A DNA stretch of 64,000 nt, from NCBI GenBank assembly GCA_963664405.1, contig OY761158.1, positions 1,504,001-1,568,000 of the forward strand, read 5' to 3'. The stretch comes from Thermoanaerobaculia bacterium. Its GTDB lineage: Bacteria > Acidobacteriota > Thermoanaerobaculia > Multivoradales > Multivoraceae. How positions within the stretch are numbered: position 1 is the stretch's first letter; each line of letters begins with the position of its first letter. The position numbers and the translations under genes were made by a program. Of the stretch, positions 23,263-32,395 are shown one piece after another. The notes below the pieces were generated by a model. It had not been told where the DNA came from, ran no database searches, and saw nothing but the letters and a program-made list of their open reading frames with translations.

Positions 23263-24516
23263 CTAGGCAAACGCGCCGAGAGTCGGAAAGTCACCTTTGA
23301 GAACGGCGTCGGCGCCGTCGAAGCCCATCCACTCCTCGATCATCGTGGCGTAGACCGACCGGAAGTCGGTGGTGACCTTCAGATTGCCATTCTGATCCAG
23401 ATCCTCGAGGCTGGGGAAACCGCCATACCAGCCACCCTTCACCTGCTTGCCGAGAATGTACATGGGTCCCGCGGTGCCGTGATCGGTACCCCCGCTGGCG
23501 TTCTCGTTGACCCGCCGACCGAACTCGGAGAAGACCATGATGGCGATGTCGTCCGCCCGTCCGATCCGCTCCATGTCGTCGAGGAAGGCACGTAGCGCGT
23601 CGGTGGCGTAGAGCACGTAGGAGCGCAGCGTCAGCGCCTGGTTGGCATGGGTATCCCAACCGCCCATGCTGGCGTAGTAGATCCGGGTGGGAAAGCCACT
23701 GTCGATGAGCGCCGCCACGTGCTCGAGGTCGTTCTGCAGCGCGCCCACTCCCCCATAGTCGATGACAGTCTTGTACTCGGCGCACGCATCCTTGACCAGG
23801 GAGGAGCTGTCGGTGGCGACGGCATCGATGTTGTTGAGGAAGGAGAGGGTCGGGTTCGCCACCTCGACATCCTCGGTCATTCGTACGAGAGCGGCTCGCT
23901 GGGCGCTGCTCACCTCGCGCTGGAACTTCTCGGGATCGCTGAAGGTGATCGGCGCGTGGAGCCCGCTGCGCACCGCCAAGCTCTCCTTGGTGCCGACGTT
24001 GACGATGAACTGCTTCGGCGCATCGGGCCTCGCGTCGTCGGCGAAGCGCCCCAGCCAACCGCGGGAATCAGAGCCGTTGGGAACCGCGGTGTGCCAGTAC
24101 TCCATCGAGGAGAAGTGCGAAAGGCTCGAGTTGTCATAGCCGCAACCGTTGACCACCGCCATCTTGCCGTCCTTGAAGAGGCGCTCGAAACCGGGGGCGC
24201 GGGGGTGGAAGCCGAAGTCGTCGCTCACTCGAAGCGCCTCGCTCTTGGGGATCGCAAGTGTGGGGCGCGACCGGTAGTAATGATCGTTCTCGATCGGTAC
24301 CAGCACGCTCAAGCCATCGATCCCCCCTGCGAGCTCGACGACGATGAGAATCCGCTCGTTCTCCTGCTTGCCGGATCGAGCCTGCGCGGCGAGAGCAGCG
24401 CCGGCCTGCTGCAGGAAGCCCGGCAGCGTCGCCGAGACACCGAGACCGACGAGGCCGCTGCGCAGAAGCTCCCGACGGGTGCAGGAGCAATTATGGGGTC
24501 TCAAGATGTTTGCCAT
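23263..24516 (-). CDS. DUF1501 domain protein (Tat signal)
   Basis: TRRELL, LAGGIDGL, SHF, GGWDTH, SEFGRR, GTDHG, TTDFRSVY. Confidence 0.92.
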   Translation of the reverse strand: MANILRPHNCSCTRRELLRSGLVGLGVSATLPGFLQQAGAALAAQARSGKQENERILIVVELAGGIDGLSVLVPIENDHYYRSRPTLAIPKSEALRVSDDFGFHPRAPGFERLFKDGKMAVVNGCGYDNSSLSHFSSMEYWHTAVPNGSDSRGWLGRFADDARPDAPKQFIVNVGTKESLAVRSGLHAPITFSDPEKFQREVSSAQRAALVRMTEDVEVANPTLSFLNNIDAVATDSSSLVKDACAEYKTVIDYGGVGALQNDLEHVAALIDSGFPTRIYYASMGGWDTHANQALTLRSYVLYATDALRAFLDDMERIGRADDIAIMVFSEFGRRVNENASGGTDHGTAGPMYILGKQVKGGWYGGFPSLEDLDQNGNLKVTTDFRSVYATMIEEWMGFDGADAVLKGDFPTLGAFA

Positions 24517-24559
24517 TCTCGGTTCACCTCCCTGCCGAGGCCGATCGCACGCTGGCGCT

Positions 24560-26344
24560 TCAACTGAGCTGGTACTCCGGGACACTGATAATCAAGTGAA
24601 GCAGGCTGCGCAGAGTCTCCTCCGTACTCTCCGCCTGGTAGTCGATCGTCGCCTCGCCGAGCTCTGTCGCAACAAAGTCGAGCATTGCACCCCGCCTTTG
24701 CGCTGAAAGCGGCACACGTAGGAAGCGGCCGGCAAGGTAGTCGACCGCCTCTTCTCCGGTCTGTACCTCCGCACTGCGTAGGAGACTGGAGAGATCAAAC
24801 ACGGCCGCTTGCCGGTCGAGCCTGACGGTGCGGCTGGCACGTCGCCGGCCCGCCCGGGAAGCCTGGGGAGAGTTGTACTCCTCGCTCTCGTTGAAGCGGG
24901 TCGACTTGCCCGAAGAGATCTCCGCCATCGTACTCATAGCGGCGCCCCCCCCGCCGCCCCCTGGAGGCGACACTCGCTCAGGAAAGAGCGCCTGGCCCAG
25001 ATAGTTGGCCCTGCCGATCAGAGTCGCCGGGTTGATCCAGGTGCGACCGCCGGACCAGCCGGCGACGTTGGGCGGAAAGAAAAGCTCCTGGCCCTGGATC
25101 TGGCAGAAGGAGCGAAAGTCGGGAGTCCCGGGGATCGCGTCGAGGCCGAGCTTGCGGAAGGAGGACACGGCCAGCACCACCGGGCTCTTGACCTGGGTTG
25201 CAAAGGAGGCGGGGCTGTAGAAGTCGCGCGACAGGAAGAGTGTGGTCAAGAAGGGCTTGAGCTCGTAGTCGTTGTCTCGAAGCACCCGCGCCAAGGCCGA
25301 GTGCAGCTCAGGAGTGAGCTCCTCTCGCGAGAAGTAGCGATAGAGCTTGCCGGCGATGAATCGGGCGGCGGCCTCCTGCCCGAGGATGAGATCGATCACA
25401 TCGTAGCCGTCGAAATTACCCCTGTGACCGAAGATCGTCTTTTCAGCGGCGTCGTGGTTCTCCTTGCGGTCGACGAAACTCAGGTGCTCGCTGGTCCATC
25501 CGGTGAACGCCCGAGCGGCCTCGCGGATGTCCTCTTCGGTGTAGTTGCCGACGCCGAGGGCGAAGAGCTCCATGATCTCCCTGGCGAAGTTCTCGTTGGG
25601 GTGCTCCTTGACGTTGAGCCGATTGTCGAGCCACCACACCATTGCCGGGTCCTGGGACATGGCGACCAGGAGGTCCCGAAAGCCGGAGGTGGCGAGACGG
25701 CGCGAGGTCTCGTTCTGTCGCACCATGCGCTTGTAGTAGCGCAGCTTCTGGTTCGAGGTAGCGAAGTGGTCGTGCCAGAAGAGGGTCATGCGCTCTTCGA
25801 GCGGGCGCGGTGTCACCACCATTCGGCTGGCCCACCAGTGGGCGTAGCGCACCATCTCCAACTGGTCGGCCCAGAGCAGAAAGTAGCTGCGCTCGGCCAC
25901 CGGCTGCAGCCGCATCGGCCCCGACGCAGCGACCTTGACTCCTAGCGCCTCGCCGCTGCGCCGGGCTTCCGGTAGAGCCTCTCGCACGCCAAGCATGTAG
26001 GGCTCGACGCCGTCGGGATAGATGCCGGTCTCTTGGAAGGCGGGTAGGTCGCTGGCATCGATCTTCTCGTAGTGGACGAGATACCGAACGGCCTCGGCGG
26101 GCGTCATCGCCGTCAGATGCTCGATCTCGGCCGGAGCTCCACCGAATCCAGCGCGCTCGAGAAGATGACCGGCGCGGGCGTACGACCAGTCGGCGGCAGT
26201 GATCGGCGCAAGATCGCCGACCCACGATGACGGCCCGGCTCCTCGCTCGAAAAACTGCGGCCCGGCGGCGCCGGCGGGGGCGATCAAGGCCAGGCCGAGA
26301 CCGAAGACAGGCAATCGCAGCATGAGGATGGCTCCCAGAGACAA
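24560..26344 (-). CDS. DUF1800 domain protein
   Basis: HLLERAGFG, ERMTLFWHDHFATS, PNENFAREIMELF, PPNVAGW, PEYQL. Confidence 0.92.
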   Translation of the reverse strand: MSLGAILMLRLPVFGLGLALIAPAGAAGPQFFERGAGPSSWVGDLAPITAADWSYARAGHLLERAGFGGAPAEIEHLTAMTPAEAVRYLVHYEKIDASDLPAFQETGIYPDGVEPYMLGVREALPEARRSGEALGVKVAASGPMRLQPVAERSYFLLWADQLEMVRYAHWWASRMVVTPRPLEERMTLFWHDHFATSNQKLRYYKRMVRQNETSRRLATSGFRDLLVAMSQDPAMVWWLDNRLNVKEHPNENFAREIMELFALGVGNYTEEDIREAARAFTGWTSEHLSFVDRKENHDAAEKTIFGHRGNFDGYDVIDLILGQEAAARFIAGKLYRYFSREELTPELHSALARVLRDNDYELKPFLTTLFLSRDFYSPASFATQVKSPVVLAVSSFRKLGLDAIPGTPDFRSFCQIQGQELFFPPNVAGWSGGRTWINPATLIGRANYLGQALFPERVSPPGGGGGGAAMSTMAEISSGKSTRFNESEEYNSPQASRAGRRRASRTVRLDRQAAVFDLSSLLRSAEVQTGEEAVDYLAGRFLRVPLSAQRRGAMLDFVATELGEATIDYQAESTEETLRSLLHLIISVPEYQLS

Positions 26345-26430: not shown

Positions 26431-27750
26431 TCAATCAGCGATGGCCTGATACGTCAAGTTGCGGAACTCGGTTCCGTAGTCGAGCCCGGCATGGGGAATG
26501 ATCTGGATCATGAAGATGCCGATCAACTCCTCGACGGGGTCGATCCAGAAGCGAGTTCCCGCAGCGCCTCCCCAATTGTAGGTGCCCACGCTCCCCAGAG
26601 CTCCATACTCGCCGAGATCGGTGAGCACGGAAAAGCCGAGACCGAAACCATGCCCCGCTCGGCCGTGGCCCGGAATGTCGCCCAGATGGTCGGTGGTCAT
26701 CAGCTCCACCGACTTGCGCGACAGAATCCGTTTGCCGTCGAGGGTGCCGCCGTTGAGCATCATCTGCGCGAAGCGTAGGTAGTCGTGGGCGGTGGAAGCG
26801 AGCCCTCCACCCCCGGAAAAGAAGGTGGCGCCTTCGCGATATCCGTCGTCGGCACGCTCCGCCGGCGCCGGCACCAGCGGCTTCTTGCCGGAGCGAGCGC
26901 GCAGGAAGACGTCGCTTGAATCGGTCGTACCCTCGGGCGAGTAGAGAACGGCGAAGCGATCCTGCTTCGCATCGGGCACCACGAAGCCGGTATCGCGCAT
27001 CCCCAGGGGGCCGAGGATCCTCTCTTCGAGAAACCGATCGAAGCTCTGCCCGGAGATCACCTCGATGAGCCGGCCCTGCACGTCTACTGCAACGCTGTAA
27101 TGCCAACGAGTGCCCGGCTCGAAGCGTAGCGGCAATTGGCCAAGCTTCTCCACCGTCTCGGCGATGTTCTTGTCCTCCCGCAACACCCCCTGTTCTCGGT
27201 ACATGCGGTCGACCTTGGTGTCGCCGAAGAAGCCGTAGGTCATTCCCGCGGTGTGGCGCAGCAGGTCGCGAATGGTGATCGGCCGGCGCGCGGGGTGAGT
27301 GCGCACCGTGGTCTCCTCGCTACCGCGGCGCCTCTCTTCTTCCATCACCTGGAGCTTCGCCAGTTCCGGCAGGTACTCGGACACCGGATCGCTGAGCTGG
27401 AAGTGACCCTCTTCGTGAAGAATCATCACCCCGACACTGGTGATCGGCTTGGACATCGAATAGATGCGAAAGATGTCGTCATCGCGCATCTTGACCTTGC
27501 CCTCGCGGTCGGCCCAGCCCCAGCTTTGGAGGTAGGCGACCTTGCCTCGACGCGCGATCAGCGCCATCGCGCCGGGGATCTCTCCAGAGGCGACATAGGC
27601 CTGCATGTGCTCGCCGATGCGGGCGAGGCGCTCCGAAGAGAGGCCGACCGCCTCGGGCTCGACGGTCTCCAGGCCGTTGCCCAGAGCCGGGGCTGCGAGG
27701 AAGAGCACAAAAGAGAGGGGTGCGAAAACGGTGATCAGTGTTCGCTTCAT
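26431..27750 (-). CDS. Serine hydrolase (beta-lactamase/PBP-like esterase family)
   Basis: FRIYSMSK (SxxK), DLLRHTAG, WHYS, PLGM, WGGAAGT; start at MKRTLIT. Confidence 0.92.
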   Translation of the reverse strand: MKRTLITVFAPLSFVLFLAAPALGNGLETVEPEAVGLSSERLARIGEHMQAYVASGEIPGAMALIARRGKVAYLQSWGWADREGKVKMRDDDIFRIYSMSKPITSVGVMILHEEGHFQLSDPVSEYLPELAKLQVMEEERRRGSEETTVRTHPARRPITIRDLLRHTAGMTYGFFGDTKVDRMYREQGVLREDKNIAETVEKLGQLPLRFEPGTRWHYSVAVDVQGRLIEVISGQSFDRFLEERILGPLGMRDTGFVVPDAKQDRFAVLYSPEGTTDSSDVFLRARSGKKPLVPAPAERADDGYREGATFFSGGGGLASTAHDYLRFAQMMLNGGTLDGKRILSRKSVELMTTDHLGDIPGHGRAGHGFGLGFSVLTDLGEYGALGSVGTYNWGGAAGTRFWIDPVEELIGIFMIQIIPHAGLDYGTEFRNLTYQAIAD

Positions 27751-27936
27751 GGCGTTCTCCAAAAGTAGAGAGAGGTGATCTTGGAGGATCGAATCTACGC
27801 CCCTTCGCCCCGCCGGGCAACTCACTAAGGCCGCTTCCCCCATCCGCCTATCCGCGCCGTTCGGCGATCTTCGCTAGACTCCCATAGGAGGCAGCGTTCC
27901 AAGGTTGGTCTCAGCCTCCCAAATCGGAGCCCTGTC

Positions 27937-29313
27937 CTGAGCGAAGTCAAAATCTGCGACGTTTCTCTGCGCGACGGCATGCAGGTGATGAACCGGCACG
28001 CGATCATCCCGCTCGAAGCGCGCCTGCAGCTGGTCGACGCTCTGATCCGCGCCAATGTTCCCTACATCGAGGTCGGCTCGTTCGTGAATCCTCGAGTGGT
28101 ACCTGCGATGGCCGACACGCCCGAGATGCTGCGCCAGATGCCTCCCTACGACGGCCAGATCGCCTGTCTGGTGCCCAGCCTCAAGTACTACGAAGAGTTG
28201 AAGCAGGCAGAGCGTGTCAACACTGTTGCGCTCTTCGTCTCCGCCTCCGAAGACTACGCCCGTAAGAACACGCGCATGACCGTCGACGAGGCGGTCGACG
28301 CGGCGGCCAAGGTCGCCGAGGCGGCTCGCGCCGACGGCTACCGTATCCGCGGCTACGTTTCGTTCGCTTTTCGCGACCCCTCGCTGCCCGAGAGTCGAAT
28401 GCCCGAAGAGCAGGTCGAGCGCATCACTCGACGCCTCATCGACATGGGCTGTGAGGCGGTCGCTCTCTCCGACACCGACGGCCTGGCCTCACCGCGAGAA
28501 ATGCAGCGTGTCATCGGCCACATTCGCAACGAGATCGGCCTCGAGCACATCGCCGTTCACCTCCACGACCGCAGAGGGCTCGGCATCACCAACGCATACT
28601 CCGCCTATCAGCAGGGCGTGCGAATCTTCGACGCCTCGATCGGCGGTATCGGCGGTGCGATCACGGTGCGTCACTCGATCGGCAACATCTCGACCGAAGA
28701 GCTGGTATGCATGTTCGACAGTATCGGCGTCGAAACCGGAATCGACGTCGAGCCTCTGATCGAGGCGGGATGTCGTGTCTCGCAGATGGCCGACTTCGTT
28801 GGCGACCCGCCGCCACCCAGTCGCATCATCCTCGACGAGCTCGCCAAGCGGCGGGCCGAGGCCGAAGAGACCGAGGGCATCGAGGCGGATCTCAGTCTGA
28901 AAGATCTCGTCAGCTCTCTCTTGCGTACCCTCGGCAAGCGCCCCCAGACCTTGTCTGTCGAGGCAGTCAGCCACACTCTGACCGACGCGGGCAAGCAGGT
29001 GCATCGCTTCCTCCACGCCCCCACCAACCGCGCCGCGGTGCTGTTCAGCCTCGCCTTGATGGTCGGGGTATCCGGGATCGGGGCGCTCTTCGTCAGAATC
29101 CTCCCTACTGACTGGGTCGCCCGAAGCGAAGTCATTGCCATCACACTCTTCAGCCTGGTCATGGTGCTCTTAGTCGGGGGCGCCTTGACCATGCTCCTCG
29201 TCGAAGGCCTACGTCTGCCGCAGAAGATGACGGCGGACGAGCGTGAGATCGTGCGCAGTGCGGTCACCGGTATTCTCGACGAGCTCGACGGAGCGAGCGA
29301 GCCAGGCAGCTAG
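27937..29313 (+). CDS. HMG-CoA lyase family (DRE-TIM metallolyase) with a C-terminal two-TM extension
   Basis: VKICDVSLRDG lies upstream of the track ATG (probable CTG start at 27937 after GGAG); IEVGSFV, LSDTDG, HLHD, GGIGG, GNISTEELV; then about 140 aa with two hydrophobic helices. Confidence 0.85.
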   Translation: MSEVKICDVSLRDGMQVMNRHAIIPLEARLQLVDALIRANVPYIEVGSFVNPRVVPAMADTPEMLRQMPPYDGQIACLVPSLKYYEELKQAERVNTVALFVSASEDYARKNTRMTVDEAVDAAAKVAEAARADGYRIRGYVSFAFRDPSLPESRMPEEQVERITRRLIDMGCEAVALSDTDGLASPREMQRVIGHIRNEIGLEHIAVHLHDRRGLGITNAYSAYQQGVRIFDASIGGIGGAITVRHSIGNISTEELVCMFDSIGVETGIDVEPLIEAGCRVSQMADFVGDPPPPSRIILDELAKRRAEAEETEGIEADLSLKDLVSSLLRTLGKRPQTLSVEAVSHTLTDAGKQVHRFLHAPTNRAAVLFSLALMVGVSGIGALFVRILPTDWVARSEVIAITLFSLVMVLLVGGALTMLLVEGLRLPQKMTADEREIVRSAVTGILDELDGASEPGS

Positions 29314-29319
29314 AGGTTA

Positions 29320-29706
29320 ATGATGGCCGAAGAGAACTCGCCGACGACCGAACGGGACCGCTCGAAAGAGCTCGCATTCCACGAGCACGCCAAAGACCAG
29401 TTGACGCAGCAGATCCGCACTTACGGCCAGGAGCTGATCCGTGAATCGGTATCGACAGCCCGCGCCCAGAAACACCCTCTCGTCCAGCAGAAGGATGTTC
29501 AGCAGGCGGCGCACCGACTTCACACCGAGTTCCGCAATCGAACCGCCGTGCTGCTGCAGTTCATGGGCGCCGGCCTCATCGGCGTCTTCCTGCAAGGCTT
29601 CGCTATCGAAATGCTCGCCGAGAACCCCAATCTGTGGGCGGTCGTGGTCTACGTCGTGGTCGGCTTCGCCGGCCTCTTCGGCGTCTTCTGGTCCCTGATT
29701 CGCTAG
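29320..29706 (+). CDS. Small membrane protein with a histone-fold-like N-terminal segment and two TM helices
   Basis: Residues ~19-67 align by eye without gaps to archaeal HMf L1-alpha2-L2-alpha3; two C-terminal hydrophobic helices; starts 6 nt after the lyase stop. Confidence 0.7.
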   Translation: MMAEENSPTTERDRSKELAFHEHAKDQLTQQIRTYGQELIRESVSTARAQKHPLVQQKDVQQAAHRLHTEFRNRTAVLLQFMGAGLIGVFLQGFAIEMLAENPNLWAVVVYVVVGFAGLFGVFWSLIR

Positions 29707-29845
29707 CTGGCTGCGGGAATGGTGAATACCATTCCCTCCACCAGCTGAATATGGCGCCGAGGACGGCGCGCGTCGGCCGTCCGCGGACGGACGGCCTCCA
29801 TGGCTACCCCAGAGTTTCCGGCCCGGCTACCGCGGATCTTCCGTT

Positions 29846-32395
29846 CTAACGGGGCGGCTCTCCGCCGACCCACCACGGGCTCGACCAGGCCAGATGGCCG
29901 TCGAGCTGTTCGACACGCACGTAGTACCAGTCCCCAGGGTCACCGCCGCGATCGGTGAAGCTGAACTCGACGTCATCGCGTAGCCCAACCGCACGCTCGA
30001 CGCTGACTCGGTCGCGGTATCGACCCTCCTCGAGCACCTCCTCGCTCTGAGGTTGACCGAGTTCCGGCACTACCAGAGCGAAGCGAGCTTCGGCAAATTC
30101 CTGCGGCGTGCGCACCTGGGTGGGCGCGGTGCCCATCTCTCGAGCCGCCTCTAGATCGAAGGCTACCAGTGTCGAGGCCGAAGTGCCTTCGATCGTGAGA
30201 GCGATCGCGCGCCGCGATCCGCGAGTGGCGAAGTGGAAGCCCACAGTGGCCTCCTCGACCTCGATACGATCGGCATCGAGGTGAGGAGTGCCGAGGAATC
30301 GAGCGCCTGTAAGTCGCCCGTTCTCGACACTCAGGCTACCGGTCCAGGTGCGCTGACCGCGCGGGTTGTCGCGGATGGTTACGTACGACTCGGAGTAGAA
30401 GCGCACTACGACCTCATTGTCGGCTACCCCTTCCAACGCCGCCCCGCTGGTATCGAAGCTCCCGGCAACCTCACCGTTCTTGATCAGCTCGACACTGCGG
30501 ATCGGGCCGGTGCCGATCGCCCTGCCCTCGACCTGCCTGGTCTCAGAAAGGGGTAGCGCACTCCCCATCGCGCCGCCGTTGAGACGTGCATCGAGGATGA
30601 TGCGCTGAGCGCCTGTGGTGGCGTAGGCACGCCGGGCCTTGAGTGCGTCGAAGACGTCGTCGGTGGTCTTCGAAGGTGCCCAGGCAGCGGCCAGGCCGCC
30701 GAACTGGAAGATATTCGAGCGAACTCCGGCGGTCGTCGGGTGCCCGGGCGAATACCCGGGATGACCGCGATGATCGTCCGAGGCGCCGACGAAGCCGACT
30801 CTGAAGCCGCTCTCCAGATAGCGCTGCCCGAACCACTCGAAGGTGCCATGCCCGGACATGATCTCGATCAGGGTCTCCATGTCGAGGTCGCTGAGCCGAA
30901 AGTCGCCATTCTGATGGGCGTGCGGGATGATCAGTACATCTTTGGGGTCGTGCTTCTGACGCAGACCGCGATACAGCATGCTCAGATCCGGCGCCTCCTG
31001 AACGGGCACCCGATCGAAGCCAGGGCCGCGAAAGAAGACATTGTGGTGGCCGCCCCGCTGCCGCGCCACCGTCCACTCGTATCCCGGAAAGACCAGGAGC
31101 TCGTTCTCGCGATGAAACTGCTTGGCCGCGTCGTTGAGATACTTCCAATTGGCGTCTGTCAACCACAGATCGTGCTCGGTAAGCGTGACGAAGTCGAGCC
31201 GGGCATCGTCCCGCGCGAAGCGGAAGTAGCCCTCGGGCGTGCCCTGGCCCTCGGCGAAACCACAGTGGCCGTGGGTCTCCCCCCAGTAGACGTGCTCAGT
31301 GGGACTCTCACGCACCCAGATCGGGTTGGCGACGCCGCGAATCTCGCCGTCGTCGCTGCGGAAAGTGATGCGCACGACACCGGGCTGCGACAAGCGAAGC
31401 GGAAGCTCATAGATCGCCTTCCCCGCAGGGATCTGGGCGAATTTCTGCTCACCACGGAACACTCCATAGCCTGGGATGTCTCCCGTCGCCCGGTTGTAGA
31501 AACGATCCTCGGTGCGTACCGATACCTTGACCGCATCGCCGACGGCGACGATCGAGGGCGCGAAACCGTGGACCCCATAGGCCTCCGCGCCTACGACCTT
31601 GAAGGTCGGGAGCGGCAGCTCGTAGAACCTCCCGTCACCGGGATCGACGTGCAGGGGCAGTGCGATCGCGTCGTTCGAGAAAACACCGATCTCGAGGCCC
31701 CGCCCCCCGCCCGCGCGGTCGCCGTACACCACGGTAACGGTGTCGCCGGCGGCCAGAGAACCGCCCTGCACTCGAAACACCGGATACCCCTGCGCCGCAC
31801 GGAAGCCTCCGTACGGGCCCCACACCGGAGCCCGGTCGAGTTCGAGGCGAAGCGAAGGGTTGCTGGTTGTAGCCGAGACGTAGTTGTCTCCACCAGGATC
31901 ATCGATCTGGAGCTGACCGTAGCCGCCGGCATAGTGCTGACTGGCAAGCACCCCGCCACCCTCGGCGACCCCCAAGCTGCCGACCGTCCACTCGACACGG
32001 ATCGTCCGCCATGAGCGGGCCTGTACCGCGTTGCGAAGATCGACTGAAACCACTCCGAGGGCCTGTGGATCCTGTTCGAGGAACGAGAGATGACGAACAT
32101 AGGTATCGATCGCCTCGACATGATTCGGGTTCGGCTCGGTACCGGGAATCGGATAGGGCACATAGAGCCCGACATAAGGAAGGTTCTTGGGCACGACGGC
32201 GCCCTGGAGGGAGACGGCGTTGGCCCACTCCCACAGCACCGCCACCCTTTCCTGGGACGTCTCGACAGTCGTCGGTTCGGCCTCGACTGCGGCAACCAGG
32301 CGGTCGACGCGCTGGCGCAGCTCTGCGGGAAGGTCGTAGCCGAGCGCCGGCGGGGAGAGAACCAGGAGGACGAGGAGCGGAGTCGGGAGCTTCAT
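29846..32395 (-). CDS. DUF3604/PHP-like secreted metalloprotein, paralogue 1 (849 aa)
   Basis: YWGETHGH, TLTEHD, GYEW, GGHHNV, IPHAH, GASDDH, YYVRVEQ..AWSSP. Confidence 0.85.
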   Translation of the reverse strand: MKLPTPLLVLLVLSPPALGYDLPAELRQRVDRLVAAVEAEPTTVETSQERVAVLWEWANAVSLQGAVVPKNLPYVGLYVPYPIPGTEPNPNHVEAIDTYVRHLSFLEQDPQALGVVSVDLRNAVQARSWRTIRVEWTVGSLGVAEGGGVLASQHYAGGYGQLQIDDPGGDNYVSATTSNPSLRLELDRAPVWGPYGGFRAAQGYPVFRVQGGSLAAGDTVTVVYGDRAGGGRGLEIGVFSNDAIALPLHVDPGDGRFYELPLPTFKVVGAEAYGVHGFAPSIVAVGDAVKVSVRTEDRFYNRATGDIPGYGVFRGEQKFAQIPAGKAIYELPLRLSQPGVVRITFRSDDGEIRGVANPIWVRESPTEHVYWGETHGHCGFAEGQGTPEGYFRFARDDARLDFVTLTEHDLWLTDANWKYLNDAAKQFHRENELLVFPGYEWTVARQRGGHHNVFFRGPGFDRVPVQEAPDLSMLYRGLRQKHDPKDVLIIPHAHQNGDFRLSDLDMETLIEIMSGHGTFEWFGQRYLESGFRVGFVGASDDHRGHPGYSPGHPTTAGVRSNIFQFGGLAAAWAPSKTTDDVFDALKARRAYATTGAQRIILDARLNGGAMGSALPLSETRQVEGRAIGTGPIRSVELIKNGEVAGSFDTSGAALEGVADNEVVVRFYSESYVTIRDNPRGQRTWTGSLSVENGRLTGARFLGTPHLDADRIEVEEATVGFHFATRGSRRAIALTIEGTSASTLVAFDLEAAREMGTAPTQVRTPQEFAEARFALVVPELGQPQSEEVLEEGRYRDRVSVERAVGLRDDVEFSFTDRGGDPGDWYYVRVEQLDGHLAWSSPWWVGGEPPR

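Follow-up and report, generated by a model that had tools for sequence, protein, structure and literature searches.

Two adjacent genes on contig OY761158.1 of a Thermoanaerobaculia bacterium (phylum Acidobacteriota; assembly GCA_963664405.1), here called gene A and gene B, are a genuine conserved unit, as comparison of related loci shows. They lie within a stretch of 64,000 nucleotides (the window; positions 1,504,001 to 1,568,000 of the forward strand), from whose first letter all coordinates below are counted unless stated otherwise. Gene A encodes what its sequence identifies as a new membrane-anchored variant of the 3-hydroxy-3-methylglutaryl-coenzyme A (HMG-CoA) lyase family, a metallolyase that looks active and belongs to a subfamily of its own rather than a demonstrated HMG-CoA lyase, and gene B encodes a small membrane protein with a putative partial histone fold. 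In the papers searched, no HMG-CoA-lyase-like enzyme with a membrane anchor is described. Our best reading is that A and B would be two subunits of one complex that carries the lyase in the cytoplasmic membrane. We regard this proposal as evenly poised; it draws on gene order, tight spacing and a pattern seen across the wider B family, not on a predicted interface.

Conservation of the gene pair and the enzyme of gene A

Gene A stands directly before gene B in all 11 related loci (L015, L016, L018, L019 to L025 and L056), including the partial locus L018, which opens with the last 51 residues of the A tail directly before B. The flanks of these loci are not conserved, and a DUF3604 neighbour is common to the window and L024 only. 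An earlier interpretation made from the letters alone (the sequence-only reading) had placed A 6 nt ahead of B and had proposed a search for the pair in other genomes. The spacing was borne out (A stop at 29313, B start at 29320), and the pair was syntenic at 11 of 11 loci with differing flanks. The distribution of the pair is nevertheless patchy. An A-type barrel (72–75% identity) occurs in 4 of the 151 sampled genomes of the class, where the next best match has 41% identity, and B occurs in 3 of 401 genomes sampled from the phylum. In the phylum sample, two further weak B matches lie inside long frames and are apparently spurious, and none was found in its 9 genomes of the same family. The class sample includes the unpublished genomes G497, G024 and G466, which add only to the canonical-type matches described below.

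The most distinctive feature of A is what follows the enzyme. The protein extends 161 residues beyond its barrel into a linker, two transmembrane (TM) helices and a 41-residue C-terminal tail, as expected from the suggestion that a normally soluble enzyme had gained a two-TM extension. Hydrophobic segments were found by the Kyte-Doolittle scale at residues 368–386 and 399–417, and AlphaFold2 places helices at 365–388 and 397–422. A search with the tail as query (A residues 295–458) returned 78 proteins at E <= 0.001 among 3,344 candidates, with tail identities of 46–100%. All 78 carry the HMGL-like domain PF00682, and their source names are those of Acidobacteriota and Thermoanaerobaculia metagenome-assembled genomes. 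Most are 449–481 residues long, apart from a few fragments of 293–309 residues and one protein of 514. The TM and juxtamembrane residues of A are invariant in an alignment of 58 relatives. Chance read-through, which the sequence-only reading had named as one outcome that would count against it, is thus not the origin of a tail kept in 78 of 78 PF00682 proteins. The linker was a separate matter. The same reading had seen in it a likeness to histone alpha1-L1, and this candidate was rejected: no histone match was found in Pfam or PDB at E <= 10, and AlphaFold2 gives the linker (residues 291–365) a predicted local distance difference test score (pLDDT) below 50.

The barrel itself is modelled with confidence by AlphaFold2 and belongs clearly to the lyase family. 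Pfam HMGL-like (PF00682) covers A residues 4–277 at E 6.3e-38, a profile of the 58 relatives finds HMG-CoA lyases first in PDB (E 6.7e-56 to 5.7e-46), and a Foldseek search with the A model gives a top 10 made up entirely of HMG-CoA lyases (E 7e-25 to 3e-23, 30–33% identity, target template-modelling scores of 0.84–0.91). To place the functional residues, the roles reported for human HMGCL (PMC6941031) were carried by profile alignment onto the invariant columns of the 58 relatives. In human numbering, that source gives Asp42, His233, His235 and Asn275 as metal ligands and Arg41, Glu72, Tyr167 and Cys266 as catalytic residues. All four ligands are kept in A (as D13, H208, H210 and N250, respectively) and are invariant or nearly so among the aligned relatives; the catalytic Arg41, Glu72 and Tyr167 are kept as R12, E45 and Y140, and Asp204 is kept as D179. 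The exception is Cys266: all 58 aligned relatives have Ala at its counterpart, A241. The loop around this residue, GGIGGAITV(R)H, is invariant, and the replacement of the usual GGCP Cys (GGIGGAI) that had been noticed from the sequence holds throughout the alignment. Other family invariants are a two-residue insertion followed by NRH after RDGMQ, and the motif HLHDRRG. Judged by these residues, A would most likely catalyze a metal-dependent C-C cleavage or condensation, either by acting on something other than HMG-CoA or by relying on another residue for proton transfer. The flanks of the related loci hold no conserved metabolic neighbour that hints at the substrate.

Whether A is simply the HMG-CoA lyase of this organism deserves careful consideration. 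In that case, an enzyme of leucine catabolism or acetoacetate formation would have been tethered by chance, and B would be an accessory anchor with no effect on the chemistry. The DRE-TIM barrel, the metal ligands and the Arg, Glu and Tyr residues are indeed common to A and the HMG-CoA lyases of known structure, human HMGCL and bacterial (PDB 2cw6, 2ftp, 1ydo, 1ydn and 6nds), and 8 of 9 functional residues are retained. The genome (G000, contig C1) has six HMGL-like genes, of which none reaches the HMG-CoA lyase family cut-off and no canonical enzyme was found; A is the best of them at 237.5 bits in the whole-genome scan, ahead of genes at 5203824–5204750 and 3921553–3922479 of the genome (185.1 and 176.9 bits). 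In two other carriers of an A-type barrel in the class sample (G119 and G475), nothing else matches at E <= 1e-20, and a third (G131) has only one further match, at 32% identity. Against this stand the invariant Ala in place of the catalytic Cys and a score that stays below the cut-off of 246 both in the scan and in direct comparison with NCBIfam PRK05692 (HMG-CoA lyase, NF004283; 235.5 bits). A also differs from HMG-CoA lyases in its 161 additional residues with a TM hairpin, in the insertion after RDGMQ and in having RRG after HxHD where HMG-CoA lyases have T(Y/R)G. The matches of 36–41% identity in the same class are ordinary soluble enzymes of about 311–330 residues, and the canonical enzymes inspected (L057 and L058) have the motifs EVGPRDGLQNE, HFHDTRG and GLGGCP; no canonical GLGGCP enzyme is more than 41% identical to A. 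Furthermore, 20 of the 21 same-family genomes of genus g2 carry neither an A-type nor a canonical-type enzyme, which indicates that the enzyme is dispensable for a core pathway. No leucine-catabolism genes adjoin the pair, as had been noticed from the sequence, and none was found in the region around a canonical lyase of another genome, G416. A plain HMG-CoA lyase seems unlikely, and we continue to treat A as a subfamily of its own.

The start of A raises a second question. An open reading frame (ORF) finder begins A at ATG 27979, which gives a protein of 444 residues, and the database protein P0001 has the same length. That start would delete the conserved SEVKICDVSLRDG, including the catalytic R12-D13. 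Of 9 related loci, 7 carry ATG and 1 carries TTG at the codon aligned with CTG 27937, while the remaining locus has a longer N-terminus; upstream of the CTG there is no in-frame ATG, GTG or TTG. Because the CTG aligns with the start of the relatives and nothing upstream could replace it, A either uses a rare CTG start or is N-terminally crippled. In the latter case, an ancestral ATG would have changed to CTG, translation would begin at ATG 27979, and the product would lack its catalytic Arg-Asp, as the relatives' codons, the missing upstream alternatives and the 444-residue database form would all allow. We consider this improbable. A GGAG lies 7 nt ahead of the CTG, the 14 codons from CTG to ATG still encode the conserved segment unchanged, and a strain variant that differs by about 1% (21 differences in 1,865 bases; present in contigs from runs X7 and X11) retains the CTG, with 8 of 16 listed substitutions within A and B being synonymous. 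CTG initiation is rare in bacteria but known. We therefore favour CTG 27937 as the probable start of gene A. The same strain variant lacks the 143 bp at window 29703–29845, from the B stop to the end of the DUF3604 gene, such that 29702 joins 29846.

Gene B and its wider family

Gene B encodes a protein that may contain part of a histone fold, namely alpha2-L2-alpha3, for which the sequence support is consistent but weak. NCBIfam archaea_histone (NF043032) matches B residues 22–63 to model positions 19–60 of 60 at E 0.008, and a match that begins at position 19 leaves B without alpha1. A profile of the close family finds five matches in PDB, all of them histones (E 0.7–3.2), and a profile of the wider family finds 335 sequences at E <= 10, the best at E 2.2e-4. 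Among the best 60 of these 335 matches, 58 are histone-fold proteins aligned over alpha2-L2-alpha3, and the histone-fold matches include H2B, H3, HPhA, NF-YB/HapC, CENP-W, NC2-beta and TAF. AAA+ lid domains, which have the same helix-strand-helix motif, are also among the matches. The sequence-only description of B as a histone-fold protein that lacks alpha1-L1 finds support, over alpha2-L2-alpha3 and at weak E-values. In archaeal and eukaryotic histone-fold proteins (HMfB-type, H2B, H3, NF-YB, CENP-W and TAFs), alpha2-L2-alpha3 aligns to B residues of about 17–66; B differs from them in having no alpha1 and in a last helix that runs on into a TM helix. This continuity is apparent in the AlphaFold2 model, which has helices at residues 12–49, 53–98 and 105–127, the second unbroken into TM1. 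The stretch ahead of residue 12 or so varies between sequences and is modelled with pLDDT below 50.

Of 66 candidates, 60 are relatives of B at E <= 0.001, nearly all of about 127 residues, and an alignment of 43 sequences has a mean column identity of 74%. Hydrophobic segments lie at residues 78–96 and 105–123 (Kyte-Doolittle). Invariant in the alignment are Q80, G83, G85, G88, Q92, G93 and E97 in TM1 and W106, Y111, G115, G118, G121 and W124 in TM2. The hairpin bears a weak likeness to the two-TM DUF378 (YuzA) proteins: 12 of the 43 members give weak matches (best E 4.2e-4, below the Pfam cut-off), and two JGI records name B relatives as DUF378. DUF378 proteins, in contrast to B, have no histone-like N-terminal domain. 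A search of the ESM Atlas returned unnamed clusters only.

A histone fold invites the idea that B binds DNA. B would then be a membrane-tethered histone by which the nucleoid is anchored, and it would lie beside a lyase gene only incidentally. The histone fold is the only fold that B resembles, and an Arg-Lys pair is retained in the loop aligned with L2. However, the lack of alpha1 means that the alpha1/L1 DNA contacts are missing, charges in the cytoplasmic part are nearly balanced (12 Lys/Arg, 11 Asp/Glu), and strict synteny with a hairpin partner favours a protein as the partner of B. In addition, Schwab et al. 2024 (PMC11390915) describe their "transmembrane histone" category as lacking the usual DNA-binding residues and as having a role outside genome organisation. 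We consider a DNA-binding role for B very improbable.

The partner referred to here is a property of the B family at large, and this family-wide pattern of an upstream hairpin partner is new in this analysis. A profile search of 1.84 billion cluster representatives found 133 representatives of the wider B family at E <= 1e-3, nearly all 115–140 residues long, matched end to end and with the same layout as B. These proteins of about 120 residues lack alpha1, and their histone-like alpha2-L2-alpha3 part leads directly into a TM hairpin rich in glycine. A hidden Markov model (HMM) of 13 distant members, which leaves out the clade of the window, picks B alone among 64,270 genome ORFs (E 2e-22; next E 12). 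A metagenome scan with the distant-member profile gave 21 loci with B relatives, and at 20 of these (all but L041) the B-type gene is overlapped by an ORF of the same strand or preceded by one that ends no more than 32 nt away. Since several of the loci are near-identical, they amount to about 13 distinct partner sequences. What varies among the partners is the N-terminus, which is absent in some, a zinc ribbon in L048/L049, long and helical or coiled-coil-looking in L039, L044 and L050, and long and helical in L051. What recurs is the hairpin: 15 of the 18 partners scored have two TM segments, L035 has three, and L048/L049 have one at threshold. The tail after the last TM segment is 39–49 residues long in the 18 partners scored, against 41 in A, and the partner tails share a loose L..E..LF..I......L motif. 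A fits this layout, being an upstream same-strand gene with a TM hairpin and a 41-residue tail.

Genes beyond the partner/B pairs vary by locus; among them are those for FtsK, UvrC, MraW, an integrase, a transposase and a TIR-domain protein. The variable partner N-termini (absent, zinc ribbon or coiled-coil-looking) could suggest that the pair of hairpin genes serves in signalling or pore formation, with the upstream N-terminal domain, in A the lyase barrel, as the sensor through which the TM bundle is gated or regulated. Polar residues invariant within the B TM helices (Q80, Q92 and E97) would suit such a device, as would the TIR-domain gene, integrase or transposase beside some distant loci (L037/L038, L041 and L052). 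A protein with TIR and peptidoglycan-binding domains lies about 300 nt upstream of the partner/B pair at L037:584–1579 (the same in L038), and the L037/L038 partner has a weak PADLOC match to LeoBC (E 3.7e-5). Of the eight partners compared with PADLOC, only one other weak match was obtained (PDC-M67B, E 0.0059) and six had none. Neither PADLOC nor PHROGs recognised A, B or any of three B relatives, searches of viral contigs and plasmids turned up no relatives of B, and most loci are adjoined by ordinary genes. The full metal site and most catalytic residues of A are also strongly conserved, as expected of an enzyme more than of a pure sensor. A signalling or pore-forming role is therefore quite unlikely in our estimate. 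A separate observation is that the zinc-ribbon partners (L048:3–494 and L049:2068–2556) adjoin a penicillin-amidase gene.

The proposed complex and the layout of the locus

The arrangement that we prefer, with A and B as two subunits of a membrane complex, can be described in some structural detail. Both proteins are predicted to be two-helix hairpins with N-in/C-in topology, which would put the lyase barrel, the A linker, the A C-terminal helix and the B N-terminal domain all on the cytoplasmic side. The A and B hairpins would pack into a bundle in the membrane, and the half histone fold of B would serve on the cytoplasmic face as a device for protein–protein assembly rather than as a DNA binder. 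In this Acidobacteriota/Thermoanaerobaculia clade, the N-terminus of the protein in the upstream position is occupied by the lyase, which would have been grafted there, so that it would be held at the membrane surface and its chemistry may take place there. The equivalence of the A tail and the upstream partners is positional and architectural only, as homology between their sequences is undetectable.

A more specific version of this arrangement was also considered. The histone fold could be split, with B giving alpha2-L2-alpha3 and the C-terminal helix of the upstream partner, in this case the end of the lyase itself, giving the missing first helix in trans to form a handshake-type (A-B)2 bundle. 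B and its partner would then make up a widespread and hitherto undescribed platform in the membrane, encoded by two genes, to which various cytoplasmic domains have been added, an enzyme among them. This split-fold model fits the topology and the absent alpha1, and the partner C-terminal tail is modelled as a helix by AlphaFold2 only in A. We put it forward as a doubtful possibility.

A number of results weigh against the two-subunit complex or the fold assignments on which it leans. The sequence-only reading had pointed to a similar juxtamembrane segment in the two proteins. This likeness stands within the present pair, for which BLASTP aligns the A tail and B with 32% identity over 65 residues (E 7e-4 for a single comparison), but it does not stand at the level of the families: the profile-profile comparison of the two tails with hhalign gave E 0.41 and a probability of 0.1%, and homology fails. 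The A tail also fared poorly against the upstream partners (hhalign E 0.11), and HMMs built from 13 partner sequences (95 and 48 residues) miss the A ORF at E <= 1000. For B, the archaea_histone score is 16.5 bits against a cut-off of 50, all histone-fold matches fall below curated cut-offs with single-stretch E-values of about 1–3, the AlphaFold2 monomer has a pLDDT of 70 and a predicted template-modelling score of 0.30, and Foldseek with this monomer found no match at E <= 1e-3. Fused or longer B-family proteins were not found among 7,999 candidates, which is weak evidence. Lastly, the gene for A begins here with CTG, and initiation at ATG 27979 would leave an enzyme without R12 and D13. A complex prediction for A(298–458) with B, made without controls, scored 0.00 in both runs and counts neither way.

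The features of the pair are collected in Table 1. According to the ORFs of the window, A and B are a tightly spaced plus-strand pair between minus-strand neighbours. The frame of A runs from 27937 to a TAG at 29311–29313, and a GAGG at 29313–29316 shares the final G of this stop codon. A scan of 27600–30000 detected no promoter-like site; its only terminator-like site falls within B on the minus strand, at chance level. The neighbours are a beta-lactamase-fold gene (26431–27843), a DUF3604 gene (29846–32395), a DUF1800/DUF1501 pair and an esterase. The DUF1501/DUF1800 pair lies on the minus strand at window 23263–26344 and is unrelated to the A-B finding. The DUF3604 neighbour encodes 849 residues on the strand opposite to A-B; a DUF3604 protein again adjoins the pair at L024:6485–9148, with 52% identity to that of the window and on the same strand as the pair. 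A gene for an Nramp-family divalent-metal transporter lies 3' of A-B on the same strand in three loci (L020:4231–5505, L022:6437–7711 and L023:6400–7698) and is absent from the window and from five other loci with flanks examined.

Table 1. Coordinates of the A-B gene pair and its predicted parts in the window
Feature	Coordinates	Strand	Remarks
GGAG, Shine-Dalgarno-like	27926..27929	+	7 nt ahead of CTG; read from sequence
Gene A	27937..29313, stop codon included	+	458-residue HMGL-like lyase with membrane tail
Probable CTG start codon of A	27937..27939	+	aligned to start of relatives
Catalytic DRE-TIM barrel of A, residues 1–295	27937..28821	+	R12, D13, E45, Y140, D179, H208, H210, N250; A241 replaces Cys
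Putative cytoplasmic linker of A, residues 296–364	28822..29028	+	acidic then helical; low model confidence, no family match
TM helix 1 of A, residues 365–388	29029..29100	+	conserved APTNR motif just before
TM helix 2 of A, residues 397–422	29125..29202	+	AlphaFold2, Kyte-Doolittle
Putative cytoplasmic C-terminal helix of A, residues 433–453	29233..29295	+	within 41-residue tail after TM2
A-B spacer, 6 nt	29314..29319	+	between A stop and B ATG
Gene B	29320..29706, stop codon included	+	128 residues; putative partial histone fold and TM hairpin
Putative cytoplasmic helix-loop-helix of B, residues 17–74	29368..29541	+	aligns to histone-fold alpha2-L2-alpha3
TM helix 1 of B, residues 75–98	29542..29613	+	continuous with preceding helix in model
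TM helix 2 of B, residues 105–127	29632..29700	+	AlphaFold2, Kyte-Doolittle

Relation to known systems and significance

A lyase-type barrel at the membrane has a precedent of a different kind. In the oxaloacetate decarboxylase Na+ pump (OadA with OadB and the small membrane subunit OadG), small subunits tether a DRE-TIM (PF00682) catalytic domain to the membrane. A differs from OadA in having no biotin or carboxyltransferase features and in carrying its anchor within the enzyme chain itself, and it matches OadA-family profiles only weakly (E 1e-9 to 1e-10). The ORFs scanned within the pair and its surroundings include no OadB-like pump gene. If our reading of A is correct, it would represent a bacterial DRE-TIM lyase that has become an integral membrane protein. 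The invariant exchange of Cys for Ala, with the other catalytic residues kept, marks an enzyme subfamily whose substrate merits finding.

For B, the closest counterpart is the transmembrane histone category of the same 2024 paper (Schwab et al., PMC11390915), whose description, a histone-fold-like domain with TM helices, B matches. The supplement text lists this category 152 times by UniProt accession and does not mention Acidobacteria, and the passages on it in the paper give no function, partner gene or enzyme link. In a literature search on such proteins, none of the papers listed dealt with prokaryotic histones, to judge by their titles and the opening lines of abstracts. The A-B pair is small, tightly defined and easily expressed, which makes the readings discussed here directly testable. 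Should they hold, the pair would provide the first functional handle on transmembrane histones, which that 2024 survey of prokaryotic histones lists but, in those passages, leaves unexplained. Transmembrane histones would then depend on a partner protein in the membrane and, in one clade, bear an enzyme as cargo, and a role outside chromatin would be indicated for the bacterial histone fold.

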